Shown: positions 9,230 through 58,115 of the stretch, piece by piece
Position numbering within the stretch: position 1 is the stretch's first letter
How the letters are laid out: each line of letters starts with the position of its first letter
Source: Terriglobia bacterium
GTDB lineage: Bacteria; Acidobacteriota; Terriglobia; UBA7540
DNA length: 64,000 bases
Direction: 5' to 3'
Assembly (NCBI GenBank): GCA_035501695.1
Contig: DATJVT010000240.1
Span: 1,389 to 65,388 of the forward strand
Program-made: the position numbers and the translations under genes
Notes under the pieces: model-generated
The model's input: the letters and a program-made list of their open reading frames with translations, nothing else
What the model was told of the DNA's origin: nothing
Databases searched by the model: none

Positions 9230-10036
9230 CTAGATGGGTAACTCCGCAGGCGCCCCGAAAGGTTGTTGCTCGTAGTCGAGCACCGCGCCTGAGACCAATT
9301 CATTGGTGGCGAAAAACAGAACTGCTCTGGCAATATCCGCGGGCAAGAGCATGCGGCCGAAAGGGCGCGACTTGGCAGCCTCATCCACCCAGTTCTCTCC
9401 TTTGCCTTCCAGCACCGTAAAAACATGGCGCTCCCCTTCCGTCAGGGTCCAGCCGGGGTTGACCTGATTCACACGAATACGATACGGGGTCAGGTAATTC
9501 GCCAGGTTCCGCGTAAATGTCATCAGCGCGGCCTTGGAGGAGGAGTAAGGCAACAGCCGCTTTAGCCCGAAATAGGCGTTCCCGGAGCCGATATTGACGA
9601 TGCAGCCGCTCCGGCGCTCCTTCATGTGGCGCACCGCTTCCTGGCATAGCAGGAACGGGGCGCGCACATTCACCTCGAAGATCTCATTCCACAATTCGGT
9701 TGAAGTATCCTCGATGGTGCCACGACTGACGACCGCGGCATTGTTCACCAGGATGTCTACACGCCCGAATCGCCCCAGCGCGCTGCGAATGATGCTGCGG
9801 CAGTGAGTCTCATCCCGCAAATCCCCCGTTACAAGAAGCGCTTGGCTGCCGGCCGCCTCGATGGCCGCGGCCACCTTTTCTCCACCCGCCCGTTGGCTTT
9901 CGCGCCCGTGCACAAGCAGGGAAGCGCCGTGCTCGGCGAGTTTGAGGGCGATTCCCCCGCCAATGCCTTGTGTCGAGCCTGTGACCACCGCCACTTGGCC
10001 CGCCAAGGGTTGTTTTCCGGCAATTTTGTCGTCCAT
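9230..10036 (-). CDS. SDR family oxidoreductase
   Basis: ORF 9230..10180. ATG at 10036 gives MDDKIAGKQPLAGQVAVVTGSTQGIGGGIA, which includes the TGxxxGIG cofactor motif. It also has NNAA and a YSSSK catalytic motif. Confidence 0.85.
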   Translation of the reverse strand: MDDKIAGKQPLAGQVAVVTGSTQGIGGGIALKLAEHGASLLVHGRESQRAGGEKVAAAIEAAGSQALLVTGDLRDETHCRSIIRSALGRFGRVDILVNNAAVVSRGTIEDTSTELWNEIFEVNVRAPFLLCQEAVRHMKERRSGCIVNIGSGNAYFGLKRLLPYSSSKAALMTFTRNLANYLTPYRIRVNQVNPGWTLTEGERHVFTVLEGKGENWVDEAAKSRPFGRMLLPADIARAVLFFATNELVSGAVLDYEQQPFGAPAELPI

Positions 10037-10073
10037 GAGTCCCTCCCGTCTCCGTCGAAAAGCCCGCACTCGT

Positions 10074-11888
10074 TCACTTGGACGGTTTGGCCCCCCGCGC
10101 GCGTGCCGCGCCGGACTTGTCACCGGCGGCTTCGAGCGCCCTTGCCTCGGCATCATAGGCCTGGAAATAGCTCGGATCAACCTCTCGCGCGGTGTGAAAC
10201 TCTTCCGCCGCCTGATTGGGTTGGTTAAGCTTCAGCCAACAGGTCCCGAGAAAAAATCGCGCCTCGACATCTTCCGGAGTGATCTGCACGACGCGCATGA
10301 AGTATTTCGCCGCCAGGTCATAATGGCCCTGCGGAAAATAGAGAACGCCGAGCGCCCGATAGGCCGGGCTAAGGCCGGGGGCGAGACGGACGGCCTTTTG
10401 GAAGTAGGCGACGGCGTCATTGGGGTGGCCCTTCATCAGGGCGATACGGCCCAAGCCCAGGTCGCATTCGTAGATCATACCTGCCGTGGGGTTGAAGCTC
10501 GCCTGGTTCAGCCGCAGGGCGGTCTTGTATTCCCGCTCCGCCCCGTCGAGGTCGCCTTTTTGGTTTTCCAGAATCGTTCCCTGATACATGTGCGCCAGGG
10601 CTGAGTCCGGAGCGGCTTTCGTGGTGTGGCTCCAGAGCGCCGCGTCATCGTACCAGTTGGGGATATTGCGACAGTCCTGGATGGTCCACAACCCCAGCAG
10701 CACCACTAAAGCCGGCGCCAGCCCGCGCAAGGGGGCGCGGCGTGGCCAGAGCCGGGGCGCCAGATCCAAGCCCAGGTAAGCCAAAGTGAGGCACGGCCCG
10801 ATGGAAGGTATGTACGAGAACCGGTCCGCCATGGGAAGGCCAATGACCTGCCGGACGTCCAGGCAAGGCAAAAGCGTCAAAGCCCACCAGACGATGAGGA
10901 ATCCGCATACCGGCTGCCGCCTGCGCAGGAGGAAAGCCGCCAGTATGCCCATCAACACGAGCCAAGGCCAGGGTGAGCGCAGACTGGCCGACAAATCAAA
11001 TGTACGGGCCAGGTTCAAATCGACAGGCCAAAAGAAAAGCCGGGCGTGGTTGCCAACGATTCCCAGGGCCGTTCCGGCCAGGTGCAGCGGGGATTTGCCA
11101 AGGGGCGCAGCCGCTGAGAAGTGGCCGAGTGCCGCGGTGCGCGCCACGATGTATCCGGCCACCGCCAGCGCGTAAGGCGTCCAACGCACGATACGGCGGG
11201 ACCACGGTTGCGCGGACCCGAGGAAAAACCAATACGCGATGACCAGGAGCGGAAAGCTGAGCGCCGTCTCTTTAAAGAAGAGGGCAGGGAAGTATACCAA
11301 GGCCGCCAGCGCATTGCGGGTGATGGGGTGGTCGCCTTTCTGCTCGGCCCACAGGAAGCAGGCGAATCCCCCCACCATGAAAAAAGCCGCCCCAGCGTCG
11401 GGAAGGGCGGAAACCCACGCCAACACTTCCACGTGCAAAGGGTGCAGAGCCCAGAGTAACGCTCCCGTGAAGGCGGCCAAATCGTTCCCCAGCAAGCGGC
11501 GTCCCAGGAGGAAAAGCAACCACACGGTGGCCGCGCACAGGGTGAGATGAAACAGATGAAAAACCTGGGGGTTCAGCCCGGCCAGCCGATCCAGCGCCCA
11601 GTAACAGAGGAATTGGAGTGGCCGGTAATAATTGGCGTGCGTCGCGGGTCCGCGAAAGGGATCTATGGCGCCCTGGAAGATCTGGCGCCAGTAGTGCCGT
11701 GTCGCCAGATAGGGATTGAGAAGAATCTGCGGAATGTCGTCAAAGACGAAACTTGCGGCCAAGGCGCGCCGGTAAACCAGGAAGGTAACAAGGACCAGCA
11801 ATCCGCCGGCGCAGCGCGGATGCCGGCCCACAAGTTCGTTCCCGTGTTTCAGCCAAACTGCCGGTTCGTAATTCCTCTCCACCTGCAC
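10074..11888 (-). CDS. TMTC/DUF1736-like polytopic membrane protein with C-terminal TPR repeats (putative GT-C glycosyltransferase), paralog 1
   Basis: 604 aa. Contains the motifs FVFDDIPQILLNPY, YYRPLQF and ALHPLHVEVLAWVSA, about 10 TM segments, then TPR repeats. The GTG start at 11888 directly abuts the stop of the upstream paralog. Confidence 0.8.
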   Translation of the reverse strand: MQVERNYEPAVWLKHGNELVGRHPRCAGGLLVLVTFLVYRRALAASFVFDDIPQILLNPYLATRHYWRQIFQGAIDPFRGPATHANYYRPLQFLCYWALDRLAGLNPQVFHLFHLTLCAATVWLLFLLGRRLLGNDLAAFTGALLWALHPLHVEVLAWVSALPDAGAAFFMVGGFACFLWAEQKGDHPITRNALAALVYFPALFFKETALSFPLLVIAYWFFLGSAQPWSRRIVRWTPYALAVAGYIVARTAALGHFSAAAPLGKSPLHLAGTALGIVGNHARLFFWPVDLNLARTFDLSASLRSPWPWLVLMGILAAFLLRRRQPVCGFLIVWWALTLLPCLDVRQVIGLPMADRFSYIPSIGPCLTLAYLGLDLAPRLWPRRAPLRGLAPALVVLLGLWTIQDCRNIPNWYDDAALWSHTTKAAPDSALAHMYQGTILENQKGDLDGAEREYKTALRLNQASFNPTAGMIYECDLGLGRIALMKGHPNDAVAYFQKAVRLAPGLSPAYRALGVLYFPQGHYDLAAKYFMRVVQITPEDVEARFFLGTCWLKLNQPNQAAEEFHTAREVDPSYFQAYDAEARALEAAGDKSGAARARGAKPSK

Positions 11889-13691
11889 CTATTCCCCTTG
11901 ATGGCCGGCCAACAATCGCCGGACCTCCGCTGCGCCGGATTTGTCACCGGCGGTCTCCAGGGCCATGGCTTCTGCCATGTAGGCTTCCCTGAACTCCGGG
12001 TCCACCTCGCGCGCCGCGCGGAATTGTCCCGCGGCTTCCCGCGGCTTGTCGAGTTTCAACAGACAGGTACCGAGGTAAAACCGGGAGCCCATTTCCATGG
12101 GCGTGGCCCGCACCGCCCGGCGGAAATACTCCGCCGCCCGGGCATAGTCGCCGCGGGGAAAGTAATACGATCCCAAAACATTGTAAGCGAAGCTGAAATT
12201 CGGCAGCAGGTGGACGGCCTTATTGAAGTAGTCGAGGGCCTCGGCGTCCCGGCCCTGGAGCTGTGCGACTTGGCCCAGGCCGATGTATGAATCGTAATCC
12301 ACGGGCAAAATTGGACGGATGCTCTGCGCGTTCAACTCCAATGCCGTACGGAATTCGCGTGCGGCGCCCTCCAGGTCGTGATCACGCAGTTGCAAGGTCG
12401 CTCCATGGGATACGTGCGCCAGGGCGGCGTTGGGAGAAACCCGGAGCGAGTACTCCAGCAGCGTGTCGTTATTCCCCCAGCGCGGCATGGCGCGCAAAAT
12501 CAGGCTCGCCCAGAATGCCCCCAGCACCAGCAACGCGCCGAGGACCGCCGGAGCAAGAACCAACATCGGGTAGCGCCGCGGTGCAACGACGAAAGCCAGG
12601 TATCCGAGCGCCAGACAAAGGCCTACGGACGGCAAATAGGAGAATTGATCCTCCACAAACGGAAAACTTAGCTGGCGATAATCGAGGCAAGGGAGGAGCA
12701 GGACTAGCCACCAGAGCACCAGGAAGCTCAAAAGGGGTTGGCGCTTTCGCCCCGCCACCGCCAGCGCGAGAACCAGCAGCACGATCCAGGGCCAAGGCGA
12801 CTCCAGGCTCGCGGCCAGCCGAAAATCGCGAAATTCGGTAAGGCCAACGGGCCAGATAAAAACCTTGGCGTGCTCCCCCAATAAGCCGATCGCCACCCAG
12901 GCTACCCGCGGCTTGAACTCATGAAAAAGCGATCTCCCTGCGAAACGGCCCATGGCTGCCACACGGATCGCCGCGCACGCCGCCATGGCCGTCGCGTAGG
13001 GAAGCCAGTGTAGCGCCCGCATTGTCCACGAAACTCCTCCGGAAAAACAGAACCAATAAGCCAGGATAAGGAGGGGAAAGGTGAACGCGAGTTCCTTGCA
13101 GAACAACGCTGGGGCAAAAACCGCCGCCGCCAGGATGTGATGCCGGAGGGCCGGGGGTGATTGCGCTTCCGCCCGCAGGAAGAACCAGAATCCCAGCAGA
13201 CAGAAAAACCCGCAGGCAATGTCCGGGATCGCGGACGCCCATGCCACCGGCTCAACGTGCGCGGGATGCAGCGCCCACAGCAATGCGCCCCCGAATGCCG
13301 CCAGGTCGGTGGGGAGTAGCTTCCGTCCTACCTGGTACACCATGAATACGGCCAGGACGTACAGGAAGAGCTGGAAGAAATGGTAGCCGACGGGATTCAG
13401 TCCCCCCACCCGGCAGATCAGCCAGAACATAAAGATGCCAAGAGGGCGGTAATAACTGCTTTCCCCCGCGTGCCCGAGGAACGCCCACATCGGCGTGGTA
13501 AAAATATCTTTCCACAGGTGCGGGTTCTTGACATAAGGGTTCTGCAGGATCAGAGCGGTGTCGTCCAGGACATAACCGCAAGCCAGGACGCCACGGTAGA
13601 AAACCACGGCCGCCAGGATGAGCAACCAGTTCGCCGCGGCGGGGTATTTCTTGAGAAGACCATCCAGACGATTTAACAAGGTTCCATTCAC
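11889..13691 (-). CDS. TMTC/DUF1736-like membrane TPR protein, paralog 2
   Basis: 600 aa with YVLDDTALILQNPY, YYRPLGI and ALHPAHVEPVAWASA. The C-terminal TPR tail ...AEAMALETAGDKSGAAEV parallels that of paralogs 1 and 4. Confidence 0.8.
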   Translation of the reverse strand: MNGTLLNRLDGLLKKYPAAANWLLILAAVVFYRGVLACGYVLDDTALILQNPYVKNPHLWKDIFTTPMWAFLGHAGESSYYRPLGIFMFWLICRVGGLNPVGYHFFQLFLYVLAVFMVYQVGRKLLPTDLAAFGGALLWALHPAHVEPVAWASAIPDIACGFFCLLGFWFFLRAEAQSPPALRHHILAAAVFAPALFCKELAFTFPLLILAYWFCFSGGVSWTMRALHWLPYATAMAACAAIRVAAMGRFAGRSLFHEFKPRVAWVAIGLLGEHAKVFIWPVGLTEFRDFRLAASLESPWPWIVLLVLALAVAGRKRQPLLSFLVLWWLVLLLPCLDYRQLSFPFVEDQFSYLPSVGLCLALGYLAFVVAPRRYPMLVLAPAVLGALLVLGAFWASLILRAMPRWGNNDTLLEYSLRVSPNAALAHVSHGATLQLRDHDLEGAAREFRTALELNAQSIRPILPVDYDSYIGLGQVAQLQGRDAEALDYFNKAVHLLPNFSFAYNVLGSYYFPRGDYARAAEYFRRAVRATPMEMGSRFYLGTCLLKLDKPREAAGQFRAAREVDPEFREAYMAEAMALETAGDKSGAAEVRRLLAGHQGE

Positions 13692-13698
13692 CTGGCTT

Positions 13699-15984
13699 TC
13701 ATTTTGAAGATGGCTTTACCGCATCGGCGTGGCCTCGTGCTTCGTACATTTCGGCCAGTCGGGCCAGGAGCGCCGCATCATTCGGAGTCAGTTCTACCGC
13801 CTGCTTTTGATACTCGATGGCGCGCTCGACGTCGCCCTGGCTCAGCCAGACTCGCGCCCGCCCCGCCGCCACACGCGCATAAAATGCGCTTCCCCACCCA
13901 GTGCCCCGAGGGTAGGGACTGAGGCGGTCCGCCCTCGTGAAGGCCTCCAGGGCCTCCCGGCGCCGTCCCATCTGGGCATAAAGCTCTCCCAGTTCGAGGT
14001 ATCGGTCACCCGCCTGAAAGGAGAGTTCGGCGGCATGGGTTAGAGCTCGCGCCGCCTCTTCATCGCGCCTCGTGCCGGCATAAAGCCGGCCCAGCAGATA
14101 CCAGCCCATGTCCGTCGGGCGAAGCTCGACGGAGGCGCGAAATTCCTGCTCCGCCAAATCGGGGCGATTATAAGCCTGCATGATCTGGCCGAGGATCAAA
14201 TGCAGATTACTGTCGTCGGGAAAAATCCTCGCGGCAGATCGCAGGTCCTCAAGAGCTTCCTGCCCCCGGCCGAGCACGTAAAGCACCGACCCGGCATTGG
14301 CGTAAAAGTTGTAGAGTTCCGCTGTGCGGCGCGCGCCTGGGCCCGTCGCCGCCGCGGGCGGAGGGTCAAGCCGGACCGTCGCACAATCGATCTGGAGGCG
14401 GTTGATCCAAGCGGCATTCTCCGGCCGGTTGCGGACGAAGATGGCCGCCACCTCATCCAGGTAGACGGGACGCCAGGCGCTGCTAGCGCAGAATTGTTGG
14501 AGCGGAAAGTTCCCCAGGCCTCCGTAACGCGCTACCGAAACCAAAATCGTGTTGATGTTGCGAAGCCCGGCTTCCTGCTGCCATTCCGGCGACTCCGGCT
14601 CCTGCCGCATCAGTTCCTGTTGGTGGGAAAGGAAGGCGGCTCCAAACGGGATCAGCCTGCCATCGGCATAATCGGGGTACCCAGGACCGATGCGCCAAGT
14701 GAGATAACCACCCAGGTTATAATCATTGAAGATATTACGCGGCAGGTGTTCCCGAAGCAGGAAAGCGGTGGCCCGCTCGGGATACCACCAGGATACGCCG
14801 GGGCCAAAAAGGGAAAGCTGGCCCGCGAACAGATAATAGTGGTTCCAAATCAGGTCTCCGCCTCGTATCAATACCAGCAGTAGCGCTCCTCCCAGCAGGA
14901 GCAGTCGCACCAAACCCGCGGATCCCAGTGAGCCTTGGCCGAGACCCGCGTCGATGCGGTGCCGCGCCTTCGCAGCCCATTCCGGCCATGCCAGACCCGA
15001 AAAAGTCGCCCCTCCCAGGGTCACGGTCAGGCAGGCGAACAGACCCTCGTAACGCAAATGAGCAAGCGATAGATAAGTGGCCGCCGAGAGGATGACAGCC
15101 GCGCCCAACTGTTTTCGCCAGAGCAAGAGCAGGGCCGCAGCGACCGCCGCACCAGCCAACCACCAGTAACTGCTGTCCGGATCGTGCCAACTAAAAGCGC
15201 CGCTTAAGTTGGCGAGGCTGGTGGACCGCCCCAACCAGTGGGAGATGAAACCACCCAGGTCTCGCATGCTTCTTTCCTGGCGGACAATCGCCACATAGAT
15301 GCGCGGCCCCCAGGGATTCACCAAGGTTGCCATAAGAGTTGCGAGAAGCCAGGGAGAGGTCCCACGCAGGCGATCCCAAGCTGCGCTTCGGCGGCCGGCG
15401 AAGGGCATCTCCAGCAACTCGAGCAGCACATAGGCCCCCATAAGCGCCAAGCCCGCAATAAAGCCCAGGTGCAGGTTCACCCAGGTCAGCATGAGCACAG
15501 GAAGTGGCCAGAGGGGGGCACGTTCGTCCTGGAATCGCCGCCACAAGATGGCCAGAAAAGCGGCAAAGAGGACCGTGGTAAACAACTCGGCGCGTGTGGT
15601 CGTAGCGTAACTGACAGCCGGCACGGCCACCACGGCCAGGGCGGCCGTACAAGCGCTGTTCCGTCGCAAAAGCAGGGCTGTAGTTGCCACGCAGGCTATT
15701 GCACTCAGCCAGGAGAGCGCGGCGAAACCACCGACCGCATAAACGACGTACAGCAACACGCCGGAAAAAGGCGGGTAAACCCATTCCTTTCCCTGTGCGG
15801 TATAGGAGAAAACATCCGCGCGAGGAATCGGATGGTGTTGGAGAAGATATCGCCCCGTGGCAAGCTGCCAACCCAGATCGAAATCCGCCACCGTCCGTAA
15901 CCCCGCGAGCAGGGCATAGAACAAGGCCAGGACCATCAGCGCCTTGACAACATACAGGCGCAGCTTGGCAGACGACAATTCCAT
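13699..15984 (-). CDS. Large polytopic membrane protein with C-terminal TPR repeats (different N-terminal family; GT-C-like, function unknown)
   Basis: ORF 13699..16017; the start is ATG 15984 or ATG 16017. It has more than 10 TM helices and DFDLGWQLATGRYLL near the first loop. The C-terminal third is TPR-rich (...LGRLYAGTRRDEEAARAL..., ...ERAIEYQKQAVELTPNDA...). Confidence 0.65.
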   Translation of the reverse strand: MELSSAKLRLYVVKALMVLALFYALLAGLRTVADFDLGWQLATGRYLLQHHPIPRADVFSYTAQGKEWVYPPFSGVLLYVVYAVGGFAALSWLSAIACVATTALLLRRNSACTAALAVVAVPAVSYATTTRAELFTTVLFAAFLAILWRRFQDERAPLWPLPVLMLTWVNLHLGFIAGLALMGAYVLLELLEMPFAGRRSAAWDRLRGTSPWLLATLMATLVNPWGPRIYVAIVRQERSMRDLGGFISHWLGRSTSLANLSGAFSWHDPDSSYWWLAGAAVAAALLLLWRKQLGAAVILSAATYLSLAHLRYEGLFACLTVTLGGATFSGLAWPEWAAKARHRIDAGLGQGSLGSAGLVRLLLLGGALLLVLIRGGDLIWNHYYLFAGQLSLFGPGVSWWYPERATAFLLREHLPRNIFNDYNLGGYLTWRIGPGYPDYADGRLIPFGAAFLSHQQELMRQEPESPEWQQEAGLRNINTILVSVARYGGLGNFPLQQFCASSAWRPVYLDEVAAIFVRNRPENAAWINRLQIDCATVRLDPPPAAATGPGARRTAELYNFYANAGSVLYVLGRGQEALEDLRSAARIFPDDSNLHLILGQIMQAYNRPDLAEQEFRASVELRPTDMGWYLLGRLYAGTRRDEEAARALTHAAELSFQAGDRYLELGELYAQMGRRREALEAFTRADRLSPYPRGTGWGSAFYARVAAGRARVWLSQGDVERAIEYQKQAVELTPNDAALLARLAEMYEARGHADAVKPSSK

Positions 15985-16088
15985 GAAACGTCCCGAGGCT
16001 CGCCGGTCCGCCCGCATTTCGCAGGGAGGAACTTCACTTCCGGGGCCCGACAGCCCGCACTATACACCCCTGGAAGCGTCCCCACGCA

Positions 16089-17870
16089 CTAATCTGCCTT
16101 AGGGGTCGATGCCCGGACGCGCGCCGCCTCCGCCTTGTCCCCCGCCGCATCGAGTGCCCGCGCCTCCGCCTGGAAGGCCTCCCGGTAAGTTGCATCCACT
16201 TCGTGTGCCGCATGGAATTGCCTGGCGGCCTGGCTCGGTTGGCCAAGTTTCAGATAACATGTTCCCAGATAAAAGCGAGTTTCCGGTTCGTTGGGATTCA
16301 AAGCCACCGCCTTCTCAAAGAATCGGCTGGCCTGGGCGTAGTCTGCGCGCGGGAAATAGACAAGGCCGAGAGATTTGTAGGCGAGGCTGAAACCGGGTAC
16401 GGCGCGAAGTGCCTGGTTGTAATCGTCGATGGCCTCTTGCGTCCGGCCCTGGAAGCTCGCCACTTCACCCAACAGCACATTGCACTCCGCAGTAATCCCG
16501 GGCAGGGGCCGCGCGCTGGCCGCATTGAGCTTAAGCGCCATGCGGTACTCGGCCGCCGCCGCATCCATCTTCCCGTCCCGCTGCTGGAGCAGGGCGCCGC
16601 GCAGCATGCGGGCCACCGGCGAATCCGGCGAGGCGACATAGGCCTGATCCCACAGGGCGACATTATCGCGCCAGTGCGGGACGGTGCGCACGTCCTGCAC
16701 TACCCAAAGCGCCATCAGGACGCCCGCCGCTGCAACCAGAGCGGGCGCGGTTTTCGGGTGGGGCACGCGGCAGGGTAGCCATACCAAGGCCATGTATGCA
16801 AGGGCCAAGCACGGGCCCACCGTGGGCAGCAGCGAGAAGCGATCCGCCACCGCCGAGTTCACCTGGCGGAAGTCCAGGCAGGGCAACAGCGTCACTCCCC
16901 ACCAGATGATCAGGAATCCCGGCAAGGGCTGCCGTTTGCGCATGAGTACCGCAGCTGCGAGAGCCACAAGCGCCACCGCCGGCCACACCGAATGCACGCT
17001 TTTGGCCAAATCAAAGGAACGGAATAACGACAGGTGGGCCGGCCAGAAGAAGAGCCGGGCGTGCTGGCCCAACAGTGCCACCGCCACCACCCCCACCCGC
17101 CAGAGAGGATGCAGCAGGTCCGGCGCTTCCGAAAAACGGCCCAGCACCGCAATGCGAATAGCGGCATAGACCGCCACGATGCCCGCGTAAATCAATCCCT
17201 GCAATATTCTGCTCTTCCAGGGATGCCTTCCAGGAAAGTAAAACCAATAGGCCAAAATGAGGATGGGGAAGGAAAGGGCCATTTCCTTGAAAAACATGGC
17301 GGAAAAGAATGCAAGGGCAGCCAGGAGGTGGTGGCCCACGCCCAGGCCGGAGGACTTCTCTGCTCGCAGAAACAGAACGAAACCGAGCACATAGAAGAAT
17401 GCCGAACCCAGGTCGGGGAGGGCCGAGATCCAGGCAACGGTCTCCACATGCAAAGGGTGCAAAGCCCAAAGCAGAGCTCCCACAAATGCCACCAGGTGGC
17501 TCGGCAGGAGTTCGCATCCCAGACGGAAAACCAGCCATACGGCGGCGGCATAAAAGAGCAGCATAAAAAGGTGGAAGATGACCGGGTCGGGACCCTTCAC
17601 GCGATACAAAGCCCAGTAAACGATGAACTGCAAGGGCCGATACATATTGTCGTGCTGCGCCGGACCGCGAAATGACCAGACTGACCCCGTAAAGATGCGC
17701 GTCCAAAGGCCGGCATTGTGCACGTAAGGGTTTTCGAGAACCTGAGGGATATCGTCGTGCACCAGCAGGTTGGCAAGTGTTCCGCCAAAGACTACATATG
17801 TCGTGAGAAACAATGACCCGCCCGCCAGACGCGGGTGCCTTTGCAGCCACTGATTGCACTGGTCAAGCAA
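16089..17870 (-). CDS. TMTC/DUF1736-like membrane TPR protein, paralog 3
   Basis: 593 aa with LVHDDIPQVLENPY, MYRPLQF, ALHPLHVETVAWISA and the tail ...AEARALDAAGDKAEAARV. Confidence 0.8.
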   Translation of the reverse strand: MLDQCNQWLQRHPRLAGGSLFLTTYVVFGGTLANLLVHDDIPQVLENPYVHNAGLWTRIFTGSVWSFRGPAQHDNMYRPLQFIVYWALYRVKGPDPVIFHLFMLLFYAAAVWLVFRLGCELLPSHLVAFVGALLWALHPLHVETVAWISALPDLGSAFFYVLGFVLFLRAEKSSGLGVGHHLLAALAFFSAMFFKEMALSFPILILAYWFYFPGRHPWKSRILQGLIYAGIVAVYAAIRIAVLGRFSEAPDLLHPLWRVGVVAVALLGQHARLFFWPAHLSLFRSFDLAKSVHSVWPAVALVALAAAVLMRKRQPLPGFLIIWWGVTLLPCLDFRQVNSAVADRFSLLPTVGPCLALAYMALVWLPCRVPHPKTAPALVAAAGVLMALWVVQDVRTVPHWRDNVALWDQAYVASPDSPVARMLRGALLQQRDGKMDAAAAEYRMALKLNAASARPLPGITAECNVLLGEVASFQGRTQEAIDDYNQALRAVPGFSLAYKSLGLVYFPRADYAQASRFFEKAVALNPNEPETRFYLGTCYLKLGQPSQAARQFHAAHEVDATYREAFQAEARALDAAGDKAEAARVRASTPKAD

Positions 17871-18045
17871 GAGCCAACCTCATATCAAGAATCTATACAA
17901 TGACGGCGCCCGGTGGCGGCACCGGAGCGGTCCGGATGAAACCATCGAAAAATCCGGGGTGATTATAACTACATATGACAAGGCAGCAAAGGCACTTTGG
18001 TACCGGGTGCTATCGCGTGTCGCTTCCGCCGGGCGGCTGGGGCAG

Positions 18046-18054
18046 TGCTATAAT
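18046..18054 (+). promoter_or_regulatory. Candidate extended -10 promoter (TGcTATAAT) upstream of the plus-strand membrane protein gene
   Basis: gTGcTATAAT sits at 18046-18054 in the 310-nt divergent intergenic region. No good -35 was seen. Confidence 0.3.
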
Positions 18055-18180
18055 TCCGCGCCCGAACCACGAGGGCACTGGGACCCCAGGCAGGGCAGAA
18101 CGTAAGCTCGCCCGAGGTCAGGGATCCGATTCCCCCCTGGGGATGGAAGCAGGCCGCCGTCCGTCATAGTATCGAGATGC

Positions 18181-19593
18181 ATGAAGGCCGTCCTCGCGCG
18201 AGGGTTGGTTATGCCGAAACCAAGTGACAAATTCGCCCCATACGCCGTAGTGCTGCTGATCTTGGGCGGGTTGGCCCGTTTCCCGATGATGATCCTGTTG
18301 CGCCACACTTCCTTCCTGGTCTATTGCGATAATTCCTATCTGCAGGCGGGGCAAGCGATGCTGCAACTCGACTTTCATGCCCTGGGTATGCGCACCCCGG
18401 TCTATCCGTTCCTGCTTGCCCTTTGCGGACTCCGCCCCGGATGGATCTGGTTTGCGCAATCGCTGCTGGGAATGGCGGCGAGCTTAATGATCTTCGATAT
18501 GGTCTTTCGCCGCACGGGTCACGCCCTCTATGCTCTGCTGGTCGGGCTTGTCTGCAGCCTTACCCCGGAGGTTCTGACCTATGAGTCCTCGGTCATGTCT
18601 GAAGCTCTGACGAGCTTCCTCCTGGTGTCCTCATTCTGGCTCATTACCCGGGAAGAAACGGCGGGGGAGCCGAGAAGGCTGTACCTTTTCGCGCTGGGCT
18701 CGACCATAGCATTGACTGCATTGACGCGTCCCCTCATGGTGTGCCTGGTTCCCGTGTATTATTGCTTCCTGGTACCGCCTTGGCCACCGGGAAGAATCCT
18801 GCAACGCGAGTTTTTGAAGCGAACGCTGTACTTTGCGCTTCCGGCCACCCTCGGGATCATGGGATGGTGCGGATTCAACTACGTCGTCAACGGATACTTC
18901 AGTCCTTCCACGCGCTCTGGGGGCAACCTGATGGACCAGGTGGATGCCTACGTTGAGCTGGCGCCCGAGCGCTTCGCGAACCTGCGAGACGCCTGGATAC
19001 ACTCCCGCCAAAGAGTAAACGGAGGCAGCGTCAATGTCTGCGCCATCGGTGTCTATGGGGACGTCGTGGCGGAGATGCAAAGGCGAACCGGGAAAACGGA
19101 AGCCCAAACCTCCCATGAGTTCGCGGCGCTCGCCCTATATCTCCAGGTCCATCATCCCCTGCTTTGCCTGCGCCGGGCGGAACAAGGCTGGATGCAGTTC
19201 TGGGGCGCGCCCACGCGCGATGAAATCGAGTGGCCACAGGGCAACACATTTAGCCTCGGAGAGTTTCTCATGACCCTGATCGGCTTCCTGATCCGCCAGG
19301 TCGAAGCCGTCTTTCTGGTTCTGGCCTTGCTCTCCATCCCTTGTGTGCTGTTTTACCAGAAGGTATTCACCAGAATTGAGTATCTGGCCTTCGCCGTTAC
19401 CTTGTGGGTTTCGGCGTTTGCGGCGTTCACGGAGTTTGGAGAAAACCGGCGGTTCTGCGTGCCCTTTTACATGCTGATTGTATACATACTCATGACGCGG
19501 GCCTGGGTGTGGATTACGGCGCCGGGTGGTCCAACGCCTCCAACTGTTGGCGGGCAACGATGTTCTCCGGATGGTACTGAAGCTCCAGACTGA
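18181..19593 (+). CDS. Polytopic membrane protein, ArnT/PMT-like (putative GT-C glycosyltransferase, no TPR domain)
   Basis: 470 aa with about 10 predicted TM helices and one large loop. It is the only plus-strand gene in the cluster. The start could also be the ATG of MPKPSDK at 18211. Its 3' end overlaps the convergent gene by 80 nt. Confidence 0.55.
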   Translation: MKAVLARGLVMPKPSDKFAPYAVVLLILGGLARFPMMILLRHTSFLVYCDNSYLQAGQAMLQLDFHALGMRTPVYPFLLALCGLRPGWIWFAQSLLGMAASLMIFDMVFRRTGHALYALLVGLVCSLTPEVLTYESSVMSEALTSFLLVSSFWLITREETAGEPRRLYLFALGSTIALTALTRPLMVCLVPVYYCFLVPPWPPGRILQREFLKRTLYFALPATLGIMGWCGFNYVVNGYFSPSTRSGGNLMDQVDAYVELAPERFANLRDAWIHSRQRVNGGSVNVCAIGVYGDVVAEMQRRTGKTEAQTSHEFAALALYLQVHHPLLCLRRAEQGWMQFWGAPTRDEIEWPQGNTFSLGEFLMTLIGFLIRQVEAVFLVLALLSIPCVLFYQKVFTRIEYLAFAVTLWVSAFAAFTEFGENRRFCVPFYMLIVYILMTRAWVWITAPGGPTPPTVGGQRCSPDGTEAPD

Positions 19594-21274
19594 GTTCGGA
19601 CCTGGCGGAGGTAACGTCGTTCTGATCGCGACGGATCATGGCCAAAGCAAAATGGTACCCTGGCGCGGAGGGGCGAATTTCAATGGCCTGCTGCACGAAT
19701 TGCGCCGCTTCCTCGGTCCGGCCTTGTCGCCAGAGGCTCAAGCCGAGGTAGACGAACTCATCCGAGTCCGCGGCATTGATGGCGATGGCCCGCCTTAGGG
19801 AAGCCTCCGCGTCCTGAAACCTCCCGAGTTTGTAATAGGCATAACCGAGATTGTAATTGGCCAGCCAGAACCCCGGTTCGCGTGACAAGACCTGGGAGTA
19901 AAGCGCCATGGCCTGGGCAGGGTTGCCCGTTTCCATTAGCGCTGTCCCCAGGTCATTGCAGATCAAATTGTCGCGGGGAGCGATCTTATACGCTCGCTGG
20001 TAGAGAAGCAGGTCCGTGGCCCAATAGGATTGCTGCGCAATTGTCCCGAATGCGTACCCCAGGGCCAGCACGGCGAAGGCGGCGAACGGCCGGGTCGGGC
20101 GGCCCGCGCCTGAGCGCCGGCTGATTTCAGCCAAAAACAGTGCCACTAGCAGGACAAAGCCGACAGACGGAATATAAAGATAGCGGTCGTGAGCAATGTC
20201 ACCCTCCGCATAGGCACGCAGCCAGAGGGCGGGGAGAATCGGCAGCACCATCCAGCAGCAGGCAAACAGAGCTAATCGGTTATCCTCCAGTCGGCGGATC
20301 CCCCAGGCGAGCACCACCACTAACGCCAACAACATCGCAGCGGGAAACAGGAATTGCGCCGATGCCGGGTCGACCACATAGGGCAGGCCGTAAAGCCCGC
20401 TCAGCCCGGCGGGGAACAACAGGTGGCGAACATACAACCAGAGAATGGAGGGTTCGGTCAGCGCCATGCTGCGCAAGCTCAGGGGAGTTACGGAGTGCGA
20501 CAAACCGCGCAAGACATGCGCGCGCCAGGGAAGGTACAGGAGGGTCAAACCGAAGAACCCCACGGAATGCTTCAGGGCAAACTTGAACCGGGGAATCCAG
20601 GCACGCTCTTGGGCATACAGCCACGCATACACGAAGACGAGCGGGCCCAGCACGACGGCAGTCTCCTTCACGAGCAATCCCAGGACAAATAACGCCAGCG
20701 CCGCGGCCATCCAACCCCAGCGGAGCCTCTCGCGCCATCTCAAATAAGCCAGGAAGCTCCCGATCAGGAAAACTGCCATGAGCGGGTCGGTGACGCCGGA
20801 GATCCACGCGACACTCTCGATGTGAACGGGATGGAGGGCAAACAGCGTCGCGGCGCCAAGCGCGGTCAATGGACTCTCCGTCATGCGTCGAATCAGGATG
20901 AGCACCAGGCAGGTTGCGGCCACATGGCAGAGGACGGTGGTCAGGTGCCATCCCACCGGGTCAAGCCCAAACAGCGCGTGGTTCAGCCGAAACCAGAGCA
21001 GAAAAAGAGGGCGATAATAATTGCCACTTACATGTGGATACAATTCCGCCCAGGCATGGGAAGTAAAGTAGGTGGGCAAGTACCGCCAGGCATGGATGGC
21101 CGGGTTCTGGATGATCTGCGGTTTGTCGTCGTAGATGAACTCAAATCCCAGGGTGGGTATATAGACAAGGAAGGCGATGGCGCCGACAAGAGTTTCACCG
21201 ACGCCGCGCCTAGTCAGCCATTGCCTCCAGACGTCCGCACCACGTGAGAGATTAATCTGGGTCTCCGCGCTCAC
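19514..21274 (-). CDS. TMTC/DUF1736-like membrane TPR protein, diverged paralog 4
   Basis: ORF 19514..21418 contains FIYDDKPQIIQNPA, YYRPLFL, ALHPVHIESVAWISG and C-terminal TPRs. ATG 21418 would overlap the upstream methyltransferase gene by 79 nt, so GTG 21274 is proposed. The start remains uncertain. Confidence 0.75.
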   Translation of the reverse strand: MSAETQINLSRGADVWRQWLTRRGVGETLVGAIAFLVYIPTLGFEFIYDDKPQIIQNPAIHAWRYLPTYFTSHAWAELYPHVSGNYYRPLFLLWFRLNHALFGLDPVGWHLTTVLCHVAATCLVLILIRRMTESPLTALGAATLFALHPVHIESVAWISGVTDPLMAVFLIGSFLAYLRWRERLRWGWMAAALALFVLGLLVKETAVVLGPLVFVYAWLYAQERAWIPRFKFALKHSVGFFGLTLLYLPWRAHVLRGLSHSVTPLSLRSMALTEPSILWLYVRHLLFPAGLSGLYGLPYVVDPASAQFLFPAAMLLALVVVLAWGIRRLEDNRLALFACCWMVLPILPALWLRAYAEGDIAHDRYLYIPSVGFVLLVALFLAEISRRSGAGRPTRPFAAFAVLALGYAFGTIAQQSYWATDLLLYQRAYKIAPRDNLICNDLGTALMETGNPAQAMALYSQVLSREPGFWLANYNLGYAYYKLGRFQDAEASLRRAIAINAADSDEFVYLGLSLWRQGRTEEAAQFVQQAIEIRPSAPGYHFALAMIRRDQNDVTSARSELSLELQYHPENIVARQQLEALDHPAP

Positions 21275-21339
21275 CGAGCAGGAATCCTCGCTTCCTAACT
21301 TTGTCGGGAAACAGATTAAGCCGGAGGGGGGCTTCACGT

Positions 21340-22041
21340 CTACTCGGGTTTTCGTCCCGAGACCAGCAGGGCGCCTTCCATCTTGAAGCGGTACATCTGC
21401 GCCGCGTCGCGGAACCATCGGCCGGTGTAAACCTCCGGGGTGGGGGACAGGTCAGGAACGCGGCGGTGGCCGACGTCACCGAATCCAGCGGCGCGGAAAA
21501 GTTCCTCCCAATCCGCGGCGAAGAGCAGATGGGTGGGAATCTTGAAGTGCGGCAGCCATTGGTGGCAGTCGAGGTTATCGCGGTAAAAGTTGATCAGGAT
21601 CCACGCCGATCCGGCGCCTTCGAGCACGCGGAAGATTTCACGCAGGCCGCGCGCCGGATCGTGCCAGTAGTAGGCGGACTCCACCGACAAGACCTTCGTG
21701 AAGGAACCGGAAGACGCGGGAATCTCCTCGGCGGTTCCGTGCGCGAACCGGACGTTGGCAATCCCGGCGCAGGCGTTTTCCGCCCGCCGCACCATCTCAT
21801 CCGAAACATCAATGCCCATTACCGAACCCTTGGGCACGTGTGCGGCGAGCCGCCGGACCAACCAACCGCTCCCGCAACCGACGTCCAGTACGCGGTCGGC
21901 GGGTTGCAAATCCATCAGCGCGAGCGTGGGCTCGACGATGGGGAGATGGCTCTCCTCCATCTCTTCCCCACGTCCCGCCTCCGCCCAGCGGTTGAATTCC
22001 TCGCGCAGGAGTTCTTTGCCCGTATTATCAGAGGCGGCCAT
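21340..22041 (-). CDS. Class I SAM-dependent methyltransferase
   Basis: 233 aa with motif I VLDVGCGSGW. Confidence 0.8.
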   Translation of the reverse strand: MAASDNTGKELLREEFNRWAEAGRGEEMEESHLPIVEPTLALMDLQPADRVLDVGCGSGWLVRRLAAHVPKGSVMGIDVSDEMVRRAENACAGIANVRFAHGTAEEIPASSGSFTKVLSVESAYYWHDPARGLREIFRVLEGAGSAWILINFYRDNLDCHQWLPHFKIPTHLLFAADWEELFRAAGFGDVGHRRVPDLSPTPEVYTGRWFRDAAQMYRFKMEGALLVSGRKPE

Positions 22042-22101: not shown

Positions 22102-22383
22102 TCACATTGCACGGCGACGTCGCGCTCCGTGCAAGACTGCCAGAATCGTCAGGCAATCGCCTTTCACCTTGTAAGGAACTATGTAGGGAGTGTCCGCAAT
22201 GACCAACTCTCGAGTCCCCGGTTTCCTTCCGGCCCGTCCAAGGTGCGGATAGGCGGCAAGGCGGGTGACAGCCATGCAAATCCCGGTAGCCACACGCCTC
22301 GCTGCCTCAGGTTTGTCCTGCTCGATGTAGGCTTGAATGGCAGAAAGGTGGCGGATGGCTGTCTCGCTCCAAACTATTTGCAT
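22102..22383 (-). CDS. Type II toxin, RelE/ParE family
   Basis: 93 aa: MQIVWSETAIRHLSAIQAYIEQDKPEAARRV...YIVPYKVKGDCLTILAVLHGARR, a ParE-like pattern. It overlaps the upstream antitoxin gene by 10 nt. Confidence 0.8.
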   Translation of the reverse strand: MQIVWSETAIRHLSAIQAYIEQDKPEAARRVATGICMAVTRLAAYPHLGRAGRKPGTRELVIADTPYIVPYKVKGDCLTILAVLHGARRRRAM

Positions 22384-22643
22384 GAGGGTGGGCGGAGTTT
22401 TCGTTTGCGTCCCCAGGATTTCAGCCAGCGCTCAACCTCTTCGTGAGCGACGACTCGACCAGCCTCCGCATCGTGCAGTCCTGCCTCAATTTCTGCCAAT
22501 TGCCATTGCTGGTCTTCGACATAATGACGAAGTGCGTCGGTGGCGAGCCAGGAGCGGCTCCGGTCCGCGGCCTTGGCCAAATGGTCGAGGCGTTTCTTTA
22601 GCTCGATGGGGAGGCGGACGGTGATGGTTGCAGAGGATGCCAT
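22374..22643 (-). CDS. Type II antitoxin, ribbon-helix-helix (CopG/ParD-like)
   Basis: 89 aa. The N-terminus ITVRLPIELKKRLDHLAKAADRSRSWLATDALRHYV is a classic RHH fold sequence. Confidence 0.8.
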   Translation of the reverse strand: MASSATITVRLPIELKKRLDHLAKAADRSRSWLATDALRHYVEDQQWQLAEIEAGLHDAEAGRVVAHEEVERWLKSWGRKRKLRPPSCK

Positions 22644-22835: not shown

Positions 22836-23912
22836 CTACTTGTGAGAAATGATCACCGACTCCGGCATTGGCGGCTGGCGGAAGTGCTCACTGCGCGTGA
22901 AGCCGGCATTTTTGAACATGCGGTCGAACTCGGCGAAAGTGTAAGCGTCGCCGTGCGGAGTCGAACCCAGCATGATCATGCTGAAGGTGGCGGCTTCCGG
23001 CGGGGTCACGCGATCGTCGTTGGGCACGAATTCCAGCGTTACGGCGCGGCCCTGGGGAGCGAGCGCGGCGCGAACCTTGCGCAATAGGCCTTCGCAAGTG
23101 GGAACGTCAAAATGATGCAGGAAGTTCGTCAGCAGGACGACATCATAGCCTTCACCGAATTCGACATCAAAGGCGCTGCCCGGAGTAGTGGAGTAGCGGG
23201 ATTCCACGCCGGACTTTATCGCGTTCTCCCTGGCCACTTCCAGCACGCTCGCCCAGTCGACGGCGGTGATTTCAGCCTGCGGATTATGCCGGGCGATGTT
23301 GATGCCGAACAGGCCGTGGCCGGCCGCGATATCCAGCACACGCATCTTGCCGCCTTGGTCGGCGTTGACCATCTTGGAGATGAGTTCGGCCGGCATCATC
23401 ATCATCGGCGCCATGGAACGGGCGAAATCCACCCAGATGGGATTCTCGTAACCCACGGTCCCTTCTTCGCCCATCATTGTGCCGCCCTTCCGCACCGCGT
23501 CCGTGAGGCTGTCGAAGGCCTGGAGCATGACGGGCGAGTCCAGAAAACGTGCCGCGCCGCCCATGTAGGCGGGCGAGCGACGATCGAGAAACACGGCGGC
23601 GTCCGGAGCCAGGCCGTAATGCGAGTCGTCCTTGGTGAGAAATCCCATCACCGTAAGGTAATCGCAGAGAATGCGAACCCCACGCGCCGCGGCGCCGGTG
23701 CGTTCGGCAATCTGTTCTGCCGTGGTCTGCCGGTCCGCGATGGCGGTGAAGACATCAAGATCGATGGCGGCCCGCATAGCCGCCGTTTGTTGGTAGGCGT
23801 TGAAAGTTTGAAAGAGCCGCGCCGGAGTCGGCATGGCGGAAAAACTTGCAGGCGCCCCGGCCGATTCGATTTGCGGCTTTACCACTTGCTCAGGTGCGAT
23901 GGGTTGGCCCAT
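22836..23912 (-). CDS. O-methyltransferase family 2-like SAM-dependent methyltransferase
   Basis: 358 aa. An N-terminal winged-helix/dimerisation-like region is followed by [12 protein letters not shown] (motif I). Confidence 0.75.
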
Positions 23913-24154: not shown

Positions 24155-25573
<1,419 letters not shown>

Positions 25574-28800: not shown

Positions 28801-29835
28801 ATGGAAGATCAGAAACCTCCCTTTACCGCGACGATAGTTGCCGACCCGGCGGAAGCCGTGGCGCCCGCCGGCCCCCTGTCGCTGCCGTACGAGGAGGGCT
28901 GCAAGAAGATTCGGGAGTTAGCACTGAGGCAGCTCAACCGTTTCATGTCCTACGAAGCCAAAGTTCTGAAGGGCGACGATGCCGACGCCATCCACGACAT
29001 GCGGGTGGCCAGCCGCCGCTTGCAGCAGGTGCTCGACCTGCTCTATCCCAAGCCGCGCCACCCGGAACTGCGCCGCCTGCGCCGCCAGATTCGCCGCTGC
29101 CGCCAGGCACTGGGCGAGGTGCGTAACTGCGATGTGCTGCTGGAGCACGTGGAACTGGCGCTGGGAAGGAAACGCTCCGCGCGGCGTGAAGCCTGGACCG
29201 CCGTACAGCATTTCCTGCGGGTGAGCAGGTCGGAGTGTTTCCTCCGCGCCCTGCGCAAGCTCGGCAAGATCAATCTGGCGGTCTTTTACGTGAACCTGAA
29301 AGACTTTTTCCATCATGACAAGGTGCTGGACCAAGCCAGCGGGCATCATGCCCACGGGCAGTCCCCCGCCACCTTCGCCCAGGACCTGAACAAGGCCTTG
29401 GAGGCGGCGTGGAGCGGTTTCGAGCATCACATCGCGGACTCGCATCGTGATTCCCGGCCCGAGGTCATCCATGGGGCGCGCATCGCCACCAAGCGGCTGC
29501 GCTATCTACTGGAGGTCTTTCACGAACTCGGCGTTGAGGGCAGCGCCGAGGCCCTGGGATGGCTCCGCCAGCTCCAGAACCAGTTGGGCGACTGGCACGA
29601 CCTGGAAGTTCTGGAACAAAAGATGGTCGAAATGGTGGCGCGGCCGGAATACCTGCGCGACCACCTCCCCATGGCGATGGAGGTGGAGAAACTCATTCTG
29701 AGGAACCGAAAGTCCAAGGGAACACTCGAGGACCAATACCGGCAAATGTCCCGCGAGTCGGGGGATTTACGCAAGTTGAAAGAGTGGGTTTCCTACCTGT
29801 TGGCATCGCCTTCCGCTCCGCTCGCCAGGGCTTGA
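28801..29835 (+). CDS. CHAD domain-containing protein
   Basis: 344 aa with paired CHAD signatures HDMRVASRRLQQVLDLL and HGARIATKRLRYLLEVF plus conserved His/Arg-rich helices. Confidence 0.8.
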   Translation: MEDQKPPFTATIVADPAEAVAPAGPLSLPYEEGCKKIRELALRQLNRFMSYEAKVLKGDDADAIHDMRVASRRLQQVLDLLYPKPRHPELRRLRRQIRRCRQALGEVRNCDVLLEHVELALGRKRSARREAWTAVQHFLRVSRSECFLRALRKLGKINLAVFYVNLKDFFHHDKVLDQASGHHAHGQSPATFAQDLNKALEAAWSGFEHHIADSHRDSRPEVIHGARIATKRLRYLLEVFHELGVEGSAEALGWLRQLQNQLGDWHDLEVLEQKMVEMVARPEYLRDHLPMAMEVEKLILRNRKSKGTLEDQYRQMSRESGDLRKLKEWVSYLLASPSAPLARA

Positions 29836-30638
29836 GGAGCCGCGGGTTCGTCCGAGGCCGCAGCCACCTTGACCAGGGGCATTTCCAACACTTTCTTCGC
29901 GCCCGCCTCCGCGGAATCGAGCGGAGTCGCGGCAACGGAAAACAGGGGTTCGCGCGGCTCGCCGCTCAGGACGCGCGCCACTCCGGCTCGCAGGTGCTCA
30001 AACACGGTGCGCGCGTCGGCTGAGGCGTCGATAATATCGAAATTGTATTCCTTTGCCAGGTTGTCGAATTCCTCCAGCAACCCGGTCTGGTACTTGCGGA
30101 AGCTGTCGTACATATCCTCGCTGGGATGGATATCCATCCCCGATTCCCAATAGTCGAATCCGCGGGAAAAGACCACGCGGGGAACAAGATCATCCACCCC
30201 GATTCGCAGATAAAAGATGGCGTCGGGCTTCAGGGCAAAACCGTAGGCATTGCGAATCCAGCGGGGGTCGGCGCCCCGCACGACCGCTCGCGCCATAAGC
30301 GAGTAAATGTAACGGTCGGTGAGGACCACAAAACCCGCCCGCAGCGCGGGAACGATTTCATGCTCCAGGCGGTCGGCGAAGTCGGTGGCATAGAACAGGC
30401 TTAGAGTGATTCGCCCCAGCGTGTGGCCCTCTTTGGCCTGCTGGATGCCCTTGCCGGCCAGTTCGGAGCGCTTGATGGCGGTGTCGAGGACCGCCCGTCC
30501 CTGCTGTTCCAGCCAGGGGCGCAACAGCCGGATCTGGGTTGAGCGGCCGACGCCATCGGTGCCTTCAATTACGATCAGTTTGCCGGTCAAGTCTGCCAGG
30601 TTCATCCCGGGCAGAGGTGCGGCATAAGTCTCTCTCAC
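29793..30638 (-). CDS. Thymidylate kinase-like P-loop protein with disordered C-terminal tail (paralog B)
   Basis: 281 aa with P-loop IEGTDGVGRSTQ and a DRYIYS motif. The GTG start overlaps the upstream paralog's TGA (GTGA). The 3' end overlaps the convergent CHAD gene by 43 nt. Confidence 0.7.
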   Translation of the reverse strand: MRETYAAPLPGMNLADLTGKLIVIEGTDGVGRSTQIRLLRPWLEQQGRAVLDTAIKRSELAGKGIQQAKEGHTLGRITLSLFYATDFADRLEHEIVPALRAGFVVLTDRYIYSLMARAVVRGADPRWIRNAYGFALKPDAIFYLRIGVDDLVPRVVFSRGFDYWESGMDIHPSEDMYDSFRKYQTGLLEEFDNLAKEYNFDIIDASADARTVFEHLRAGVARVLSGEPREPLFSVAATPLDSAEAGAKKVLEMPLVKVAAASDEPAAPQALASGAEGDANR

Positions 30639-49282: not shown

Positions 49283-49535
49283 TTTGCTTTCTCCCCCCCG
49301 GTATCGCGCTATAAAGATATGCCGTTCAGCCCGGGACATGTCGAAGTTAAGGGTCGGCTTCATAAGTATCGCAGGGCGGTGACGTGGCTCCCTTCGAGGA
49401 CCCGAGTACCGCGCACTGCGGCGGATATCTTATACGCAAACTCCAGCTCCGACCAAATGGTCTTCACCTTCCTTGGCTTCGCCTTGATGCCAAAGGCCTC
49501 CAATAGTAAACTTGAAATCGGAGACCTCCACTCGT

Positions 49536-54457: not shown

Positions 54458-54609
54458 GAAATTACCTCCTGCGGGGATGCGTCGCTCTGCACTGCCAGCC
54501 GACGTTGCTTCTAAAAGGTCCATACGCTCGGGAGACACGCGAAGTTCCGCAGATGGCCGGCCCCCCGTTGGTCGGGAGGGGTTAAAATGCCACTACAGGA
54601 GACTTCATC

Positions 54610-56372: not shown

Positions 56373-56383
56373 TCCCGTCCTCC

Positions 56384-56522: not shown

Positions 56523-58115
<1,593 letters not shown>

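Follow-up and report, generated by a model that had tools for sequence, protein, structure and literature searches.

An ancient, conserved array of four predicted TMTC-family glycosyltransferases in Terriglobia

In a stretch of 64,000 nucleotides (nt) from a soil acidobacterium, a Terriglobia metagenome-assembled genome (contig DATJVT010000240.1; the whole stretch is henceforth referred to as the window), four paralogous genes, here called A to D, encode multi-pass membrane proteins that end in a block of tetratricopeptide repeats (TPR). Based on profile, structure and synteny comparisons, we predict with high confidence that all four are GT-C glycosyltransferases of the TMTC family, and we find that the array they form is a lineage-specific yet ancient expansion that has been stably retained. 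Animal TMTCs are O-mannosyltransferases for cadherins, and full-length homologues have been noted in many poorly characterised prokaryotes, none of them characterised (PMC7801869). The window genes are members of this known, functionally uncharacterised bacterial family and represent no new kind of system. An earlier note on this DNA had counted six GT-C-like proteins in the array: a GT-C domain could be shown for the four paralogs, whereas the other two (a 761-aa and a 460-aa membrane protein) lack such support.

We rebuilt the N-domains of TMTC1-4 from human, zebrafish and fly (twelve sequences) from the alignment deposited with PMC7801869, and compared them with a Hidden Markov Model (HMM) of the membrane domain of the window family, built on 19 sequences. 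This HMM matched all twelve N-domains with 95-144 bits (E=1e-22 to 1e-37 when scaled to 1.84e9 sequences), compared to 1 bit for the ArnT segment present in the same file. Single paralogs searched with phmmer reached 58-111 bits and 18-30% identity over ~380 residues, with the highest score for A (111 bits), 61 bits for D and 58 bits for B, and an hhalign comparison of the window family with TMTC gave a probability of 99.9% (E=5e-38, 380 columns). All three types of comparison agree that the four paralogs share sequence ancestry with the eukaryotic TMTCs; as far as sequence homology goes, the “TMTC-like” call made in the earlier note is correct and firmly supported. The bacterial family to which they belong comprises 106,320 clusters (at 50% identity) at E<=1e-3, 76,271 at E<=1e-10 and 16,637 at E<=1e-30, whose members carry source annotations such as tetratricopeptide repeat protein, glycosyltransferase family 39 protein or protein O-mannosyl-transferase.

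Searches of general libraries returned mostly the TPR part of these proteins. In Pfam, paralogs A (29.7-30.8 bits) and C (27.8-28.9 bits) narrowly passed the gathering threshold of PMT_2 (PF13231; 26.1 bits), while D and B had no Pfam match on the membrane part and none to PMT_2 at E<=10. A scan of the paralogs against NCBIfam found TPR only. PDB sequence searches with membrane-only profiles (4 and 19 sequences) gave no relatives, and those with the full-length protein and the 4-sequence profile were swamped by TPR proteins; the output of a Pfam scan of 61 full-length distant family members was similarly dominated by TPR families. The C-terminal TPR blocks described in the earlier note are indeed strong Pfam matches in all four paralogs, with TPR_1/2/16 matches spanning residues ~415-600, directly after the last transmembrane (TM) helix.

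We then considered the seven motifs (M1-M7) described for TMTCs in PMC7801869. The Asp-Asp pair of M1 (DD, first external loop) is kept in the window paralogs and aligns with the TMTC DD. Only Y-R-P(-L) is left of M2 (SHKSYRP, loop 1), its S-H-K-S part being replaced by A-N-Y, S-S-Y, D-N-M or G-N-Y, and just the Asp is retained of M3 (RxD). In M4 (KE(T/Q)xxT, loop 3; assigned to phosphate and metal) the KE is invariant and the residues after it vary (KETAL, KELAF, KEMAL, KETAV). M5 (DW) and the DNP upstream of it in loop 4 are absent, with only the P-x-x-L that precedes DW being conserved. M6 (PxxP) is found in paralog A only (as LPILP); A is the most TMTC-like of the four. Finally, M7 (ERxxY, loop 5) reads DRFSY, DQFSY, DRFSL and DRYLY, i.e., Arg and Tyr are each present in three of the four copies, all of which have Asp where TMTCs have Glu; the wider bacterial family has AERYLY at this position. 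The motifs by which the four genes had originally been recognised, namely (F/L/H/Y)DD-x3-(I/V)(L/I)xNP, YRPL and ALHPxH(V/I)ExVAW(V/I)S, are invariant in the four paralogs.

The fold of the TMTC-like domain was assessed by comparing an AlphaFold2 model of paralog C with the PDB. The full-length model (pLDDT 91, pTM 0.89) retrieved only TPR structures. With a model of residues 1-408 (i.e., the membrane part only; pLDDT 81, pTM 0.86), the top 21 Foldseek matches were GT-C enzymes with probabilities of 0.94-1.00, including STT3 (from the yeast and human oligosaccharyltransferase, OST), archaeal AglB, ArnT, Pmt1/Pmt2, Pmt4, PimE and ALG3; AftD and AftA came next (0.98-0.99). The first match outside GT-C was an unrelated transporter at 0.18, and all non-GT-C matches stayed at or below 0.23. 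The structure comparison therefore upholds the GT-C fold proposed earlier. To examine topology, we took helix limits from the full-length model (a home-made hydropathy predictor gave fragmented segments and was not used) and counted Lys and Arg residues: 3, 2, 2, 1, 3 and 2 on the N-terminal side (the tail, then the short loops), and 0, 1 and 1 in the short loops of the opposite side (EL2 with HPxHxE, EL3 with KE and EL5 with (D/E)RxxY, respectively). By the positive-inside rule, the predicted arrangement is a cytoplasmic N-terminus, 11 membrane spans, and a DD loop and TPR block in the periplasm, which agrees with the periplasmic TPR domains of the earlier note. In such an arrangement the first external loop would carry the invariant Asp-Asp and YRPL, and further external loops would carry HPxHxE, KE and (D/E)RxxY; the helix at residues 261-279 would correspond to a loop-4 surface helix, as in models of TMTC and ArnT. 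The TPR block of the model comprises 11 helices (residues 408-598), that is ~five repeats plus a cap.

We propose that the four paralogs act as inner-membrane GT-C glycosyltransferases from a bacterial branch of the family that also contains animal TMTC1-4. By homology, their donor would be a polyprenyl-phosphate-sugar whose synthesis is encoded at another place in the genome and which is flipped to the periplasmic side. There, the sugar would be passed on to a hydroxyl of the acceptor that the TPR domain binds, most likely a Ser or Thr of secreted or envelope proteins. We regard the prediction that they are protein O-glycosyltransferases as evenly balanced, and lean, without strong commitment, towards the mechanism as a whole (i.e., TMTC-type periplasmic protein glycosylation with division of labour among the paralogs).

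Several observations weigh against this proposal. In models of TMTCs, S-H-K-S contact mannose and DW helps to hold the metal and phosphate (PMC7801869), to which the loop-4 DNP is proposed to bind as well, and the SHKS part of M2 and the loop-4 DNP and DW are all absent in the paralogs, so the identity of the donor sugar is not transferable from TMTC, and the chemistry of the donor site may differ. The label “DUF1736-like”, given to the four proteins in the earlier note, has to be dropped, as PF08409 does not match the paralogs even at E<=10; the missing match is explained by the fact that loop 4 is the DUF1736 segment. Furthermore, the topology is drawn from charge bias, and the acceptor is so far without a candidate. 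Neither a donor synthase nor a flippase lies near the array: as the earlier note had stated, there is no GT2 or other polyprenyl-phosphate-sugar synthase in any sizeable open reading frame (ORF) of the window. The literature we searched contained no established substrate for bacterial members, in agreement with the earlier note, and no biochemical or genetic study of any of them. Finally, TPRs also occur on polysaccharide-export scaffolds, and the acceptor may be a glycan.

This last point leads to the main rival reading, namely that the paralogs are GT-C transferases decorating a non-protein periplasmic acceptor (e.g., exopolysaccharide, lipopolysaccharide core or O-antigen, or an envelope glycolipid), much like ArnT or the GT-C member of three-component systems for glycan modification. 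The TPR block would then serve to tether them to the machinery of export or assembly. Among the fold matches are ArnT, PimE, AftA and AftD, all of which act on lipids or glycans, and the mannose-contact residues of TMTC are not conserved. In addition, three-component systems with a GT-C enzyme are described as a common route of extracytoplasmic glycan modification (PMC11127046). By contrast, the profile similarity to the protein-specific TMTCs (95-144 bits) far exceeds that to ArnT (1 bit), and no polysaccharide biosynthesis or export, GT2 or flippase genes adjoin the array, either in the window or in its relatives. Low-score TPR matches to the export scaffolds PgaA, BcsC and PrsT would also favour a glycan acceptor, but these are matches to generic repeats and fall far under the cut-offs of those families. 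Taken together, we consider a non-protein acceptor unlikely, though worth keeping in mind.

A second alternative is that the paralogs are non-enzymatic, membrane-anchored TPR scaffolds, i.e., pseudo-glycosyltransferases. Two of the four copies have no Pfam glycosyltransferase match and the TMTC loop-4 motifs are missing, both of which speak for this reading. Against this stands the pattern of conservation. Residues invariant in 56 relatives (in the numbering of C) are D43/D44, Y81-R82-P83-L84, P143/H145/E147, K199/E200 and P281/L284, and DD, E, K, P and R are also invariant in 61 distant representatives which share just 24-46% identity; the conservation of the first-loop Asp pair claimed in the earlier note thus extends over the four paralogs as well as the 56 close and 61 distant relatives. 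All four window copies retain every residue that is invariant in the 56 relatives, and hence none resembles a dead enzyme. The catalytic-site residues DD, HPxHxE and KE are unchanged in the four copies and in thousands of relatives (with the M7 Arg in three of the four copies), and between orthologs the membrane domain is as conserved as the TPR domain. We therefore judge a purely scaffolding role very improbable.

To investigate the age of the duplications, we fetched related loci by protein identity (L005, L006, L009-L011, L015 and L016; a metagenome scan gave 3 loci) and built a neighbour-joining tree from the window paralogs together with their counterparts in two further Terriglobia genomes. 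The tree consisted of four clean orthologous clades. Orthologs are 71-74% (A), 71-73% (B), 68-69% (C) and 73% (D, for the ortholog in L005) identical to the window copy, whereas comparisons across clades give 44-52% for B, C and D and 23-27% when A is one of the pair; a fifth paralog type, E, shares 41% identity with A. Within clades as well as between them, the membrane part is conserved to the same degree as the TPR part, and the two domains are under similar constraint. Within the window the four paralogs can be aligned end to end (with 44% or 50% identity to D for B and C, and 27% for A), and three of them have the similar C-terminal tails (AEA.ALE/DAAGDK..AA) pointed out in the earlier note. 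The same note called three of the copies close paralogs, which does not fit the mere 44-50% identity that B, C and D share with one another. When 120 homologues were sorted into ortholog groups in search of group-specific residues, nearly all fell into group C.

Gene order tells the same story of age. In L005, L006 and L015 the order is O-methyltransferase (OMT), methyltransferase (MT), A, B, C and D, plus a convergent E, while L009-L011 have OMT-MT-A-B-[769-aa TPR protein]-C and D is absent; the A-B-C-D order is kept down to a locus whose C-type membrane domain is 57% identical. In L016, which comes from a Terriglobia genome further removed, the TMTC-like gene is present just once (10001-11788); it is of C type, with a 50% identical membrane domain, and adjoins Oxidored_q6-Rieske genes which also lie beyond the five-gene arrays of L005 and L015. 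This is the ancestral single-copy state of the locus, and since the single copy stands beside the same genes, the expansion predates the divergence of these lineages. The earlier suggestion of recent tandem duplication is contradicted by orthologs that are 68-74% identical, as opposed to 24-50% between paralogs. A recent, largely redundant amplification without division of labour, for which the head-to-tail packing (with 0-nt and 7-nt spacers) and the similar tails of three copies could be quoted, is accordingly the least credible of all the alternatives in view of the paralog identities (44-50% among B, C and D, 24-27% for A), the four clades, the conserved gene order and the single copy at L016.

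Given that the four copies have been kept as separate ortholog lineages, non-redundant roles offer a better explanation for them than gene dosage. Each of these old, separately retained duplicates may thus use a different acceptor or donor. The idea put forward in the earlier note, of TPR domains that each pick out an acceptor of their own, is consistent with such long separate retention.

The coordinates of the array and its immediate neighbours are given in Table 1. The six large ORFs lie where the earlier note had placed them, and independent gene calls on a public contig of identical sequence, which belongs to a metagenome-assembled genome of Terriglobia, agree. Paralog A is 586 aa long in those calls too; the cell probably makes no use of the longer ORF that extends to 21418. 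Both spacers reported earlier (0 nt and 7 nt) can be read directly from the sequence: the GTG start of D abuts the stop of C, with a GGGG Shine-Dalgarno-like run just 5' of the GTG, and the GTG of C follows 7 nt after the stop of the 761-aa gene. As B, the 761-aa gene, C, D and the short-chain dehydrogenase/reductase (SDR) gene are all on the same strand, with successive spacers of 104, 7, 0 and 37 nt, they probably form a single transcript; this operon structure is read from spacing, because our scan counted no more promoters and terminators than it did in shuffled sequence. When all window ORFs were searched with profiles, B scored 594 bits on the family profile, and no additional copies of any of the three membrane-protein families turned up.

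Table 1. Features of the array and adjacent genes (positions in the window)
Feature	Position	Strand	Length (aa)	Remarks
SDR	9230-10036	-	268	adh_short, E=1.9e-51
Paralog D	10074-11888 (ORF); 10074-11882 (public gene call)	-	602-604	TMTC-like GT-C domain + TPR (predicted)
Paralog C	11889-13691 (ORF); 11889-13679 (public gene call)	-	596-600	TMTC-like GT-C domain + TPR (predicted)
Paralog C, GT-C domain	~12471-13691	-		
Paralog C, TPR block	~11892-12470	-		
Paralog C, invariant DD codons	13560-13565	-		
TPR membrane protein	13699-15984	-	761 (761/772)	between paralogs B and C
Paralog B	16089-17870	-	593	TMTC-like GT-C domain + TPR (predicted)
Multi-pass protein without TPR	18211-19593 (ORF from 18181)	+	460 (460/470)	opposite strand
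Paralog A	19514-21274	-	586	TMTC-like GT-C domain + C-terminal TPR (predicted)
Class I S-adenosylmethionine (SAM) methyltransferase	21340-22041	-	233	Methyltransf_25/11 matches; 65 nt upstream of paralog A
OMT	22836-23912	-		Dimerisation + Methyltransf_2 domains; upstream of SAM methyltransferase

The 761-aa protein interleaved between B and C begins with a multi-pass membrane domain of ~380 aa and ends in a TPR block; the ~170 aa in between are soluble and contain two cysteines that are conserved. The TPR is the only part recognised: its membrane and soluble parts have no Pfam, NCBIfam or PDB sequence match, a PDB search with a 10-sequence profile of the membrane domain gave none either, and no Pfam match was found on the membrane part of any of its 120 listed homologues. 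The family has more than 1,220 homologues, all taxon-named ones being from Terriglobia/Acidobacteriota, and a counterpart holds the same position between B and C in L009-L011. Conserved across the family are D45-x-D47 after the first helix, N181/H183, NPWG 234-237, WW 410-411 (WW-x-PE) and C510/C545, a set that would fit an enzyme facing the periplasm, which in itself proves nothing; the D-x-D is the sole hint of a GT-C enzyme. In hhalign comparisons with TMTC-like, PMT_2-like, TMTC and ArnT profiles the family reached at most 0.3%; these negatives are uninformative, since the test is insensitive and also misses the relationship between the TMTC-like proteins and ArnT. We also considered a TMEM260/DUF2723 type for the 761-aa protein and found nothing in its support, with no Pfam DUF2723 match for any of the six proteins. 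From its sequence, it could represent an undescribed transferase family.

The 460-aa protein on the opposite strand had been called ArnT/PMT-like in the earlier note. This stands in so far as there is a weak PMT_2 likeness (27 of 91 homologues have a precomputed PF13231 match, and one has PF09913, i.e., DUF2142), whereas the protein's own Pfam score is below threshold, the best match being DUF2142 with 22.5 bits against a cut-off of 30.1. An hhalign comparison of its family with the TMTC-like profile gave a weak signal of 13% probability, limited to TM2-TM4. The loop-1 Asp is present in 26 of 36 homologues, and Y53, R71, P73, E135 and E141 are invariant. The protein is plausibly, on weak support, a small GT-C enzyme without TPR. 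All homologues with a taxon name are from Terriglobia, and the C-terminal tail is variable among homologues. The 460-aa gene and paralog A are convergent and their 3' ends overlap by 80 nt (19514-19593). In the relatives examined no gene lies between A and B, which are separated by 168-304 nt (L005, L009 and L015); the 460-aa gene therefore resembles an insertion in this genome.

Pfam matches confirmed the identities of the SDR and SAM methyltransferase neighbours. The SDR gene, 37 nt downstream of D, is probably co-transcribed here, but its presence is not conserved: no SDR gene adjoins the arrays of L005, L006, L009-L011 and L015, and a functional link to the array, with which the earlier note had placed it in one operon, is not supported. 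In those same loci the SAM methyltransferase keeps its position, and the OMT is conserved upstream of it and the array. We considered a functional link between the array and the two methyltransferases and rejected it, as ThiC (conserved in all four locus groups) and, in two of the four groups, EF-P (L005 and L015) are equally conserved; this neighbourhood may simply reflect the synteny that related genomes share. A ParE toxin/RelB-type antitoxin pair (22102-22643, -) lies between the two methyltransferase genes of the window; relatives either lack such a pair at this spot or have a HicA pair located further upstream.

The rest of the window is housekeeping, including a ROK kinase, RapZ, ArgJ, ThiC, EF-P, PlsX-FabHDGF, Ccm cytochrome c maturation, and KdpD-like and MacB-like proteins, among others. 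Rfam (at gathering threshold) and tRNA scans of the whole 64 kb found no RNA family and no tRNA gene, and hence no thiamine pyrophosphate riboswitch at thiC (24155-25549, -). Two adjacent ORFs (49512-50639, + and 50752-51903, +) each have only the N-terminal sensor domain of KdpD, with no histidine-kinase part at E<=1e-5, and two overlapping tandem ORFs (29793-30638, - and 30635-31318, -) both match thymidylate kinase. Four long ORFs have no Pfam match at E<=1e-5, namely 54511-55212, 55455-56300, 56475-58295 (606 aa) and 58309-59466 (385 aa); in this region (54511-59466) the coding strand of some ORFs is ambiguous owing to the overlap of long ORFs on opposite strands.

Acidobacteria are among the most abundant bacteria of soil, and to our knowledge the biology of their envelope is almost unstudied. 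Human TMTCs underlie cobblestone lissencephaly and hearing loss. At present, our results amount to a well-supported annotation within an abundant uncharacterised family, with an array that is unusually tidy and conserved. Should the paralogs prove to be protein O-glycosyltransferases, the A-B-C-D(-E) array would provide a compact genetic handle of four or five single genes, a route to the first substrates of a very large bacterial TMTC family, and a test of acceptor choice by TPR domains, a question that is also open for human TMTCs. A bolder and doubtful extension is that Terriglobia possess a dedicated multi-enzyme system of periplasmic O-glycosylation, in which paralogs A-E each serve a different class of secreted or envelope proteins via their TPR domain, and the 761-aa protein stands for another, undescribed family of membrane transferases with TPR in the same pathway. 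Such a system would parallel the way in which animal TMTC1-4 share out their work, and might even be the origin from which that arrangement evolved.

How do these proteins compare with known systems? With ArnT (GT83) and STT3/AglB/PglB they have the GT-C_A fold in common, and these are the best structural matches (query-normalised TM-score ~0.43-0.54), but at the sequence level no similarity can be detected (ArnT 1 bit; hhalign 1.7%); the acceptors of ArnT and OST are lipid A and Asn sequons, respectively, and unlike the window paralogs those enzymes have no C-terminal TPR. The GT-C fold and the first-loop acidic pair are also shared with PMT/POMT (GT39) and mycobacterial Pmt. PMT_2 is barely reached by A and C, and Pmt1/2 and Pmt4 are among the fold matches; by contrast, B and D do not reach PMT_2, there is no sequence match to any PMT in the PDB, and the window paralogs have no MIR domain and carry a TPR block in place of a loop-5 domain. 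TMEM260/DUF2723 (PMC10214176) likewise combines a GT-C membrane domain with a following TPR block, and performs protein-specific O-mannosylation.

The closest characterised relatives are animal TMTC1-4 (CAZy GT105; cadherin/protocadherin O-mannosyltransferases), which have the same 11-TM GT-C domain followed by TPR on the non-cytoplasmic side. Shared with them are DD in loop 1, YRP(L), HPxH(T/V)E, the D of RxD, KE, P-x-x-L in loop 4 and (E/D)RxxY.PS.G, as well as the presence of several paralogs per genome with a presumed division of labour. Differences are the low identity (18-30%), the lack of a DUF1736 match and of DNP, DW and SHKS, the E-to-D change in M7, the restriction of PxxP to A, a shorter TPR block (~5 repeats), and the setting in a bacterial periplasm with a donor that is presumably undecaprenyl- rather than dolichyl-linked. 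The window genes belong with the uncharacterised full-length bacterial TMTC homologues and are the same in kind; particular to them is the syntenic array, with its four anciently diverged copies and two interleaved membrane proteins.

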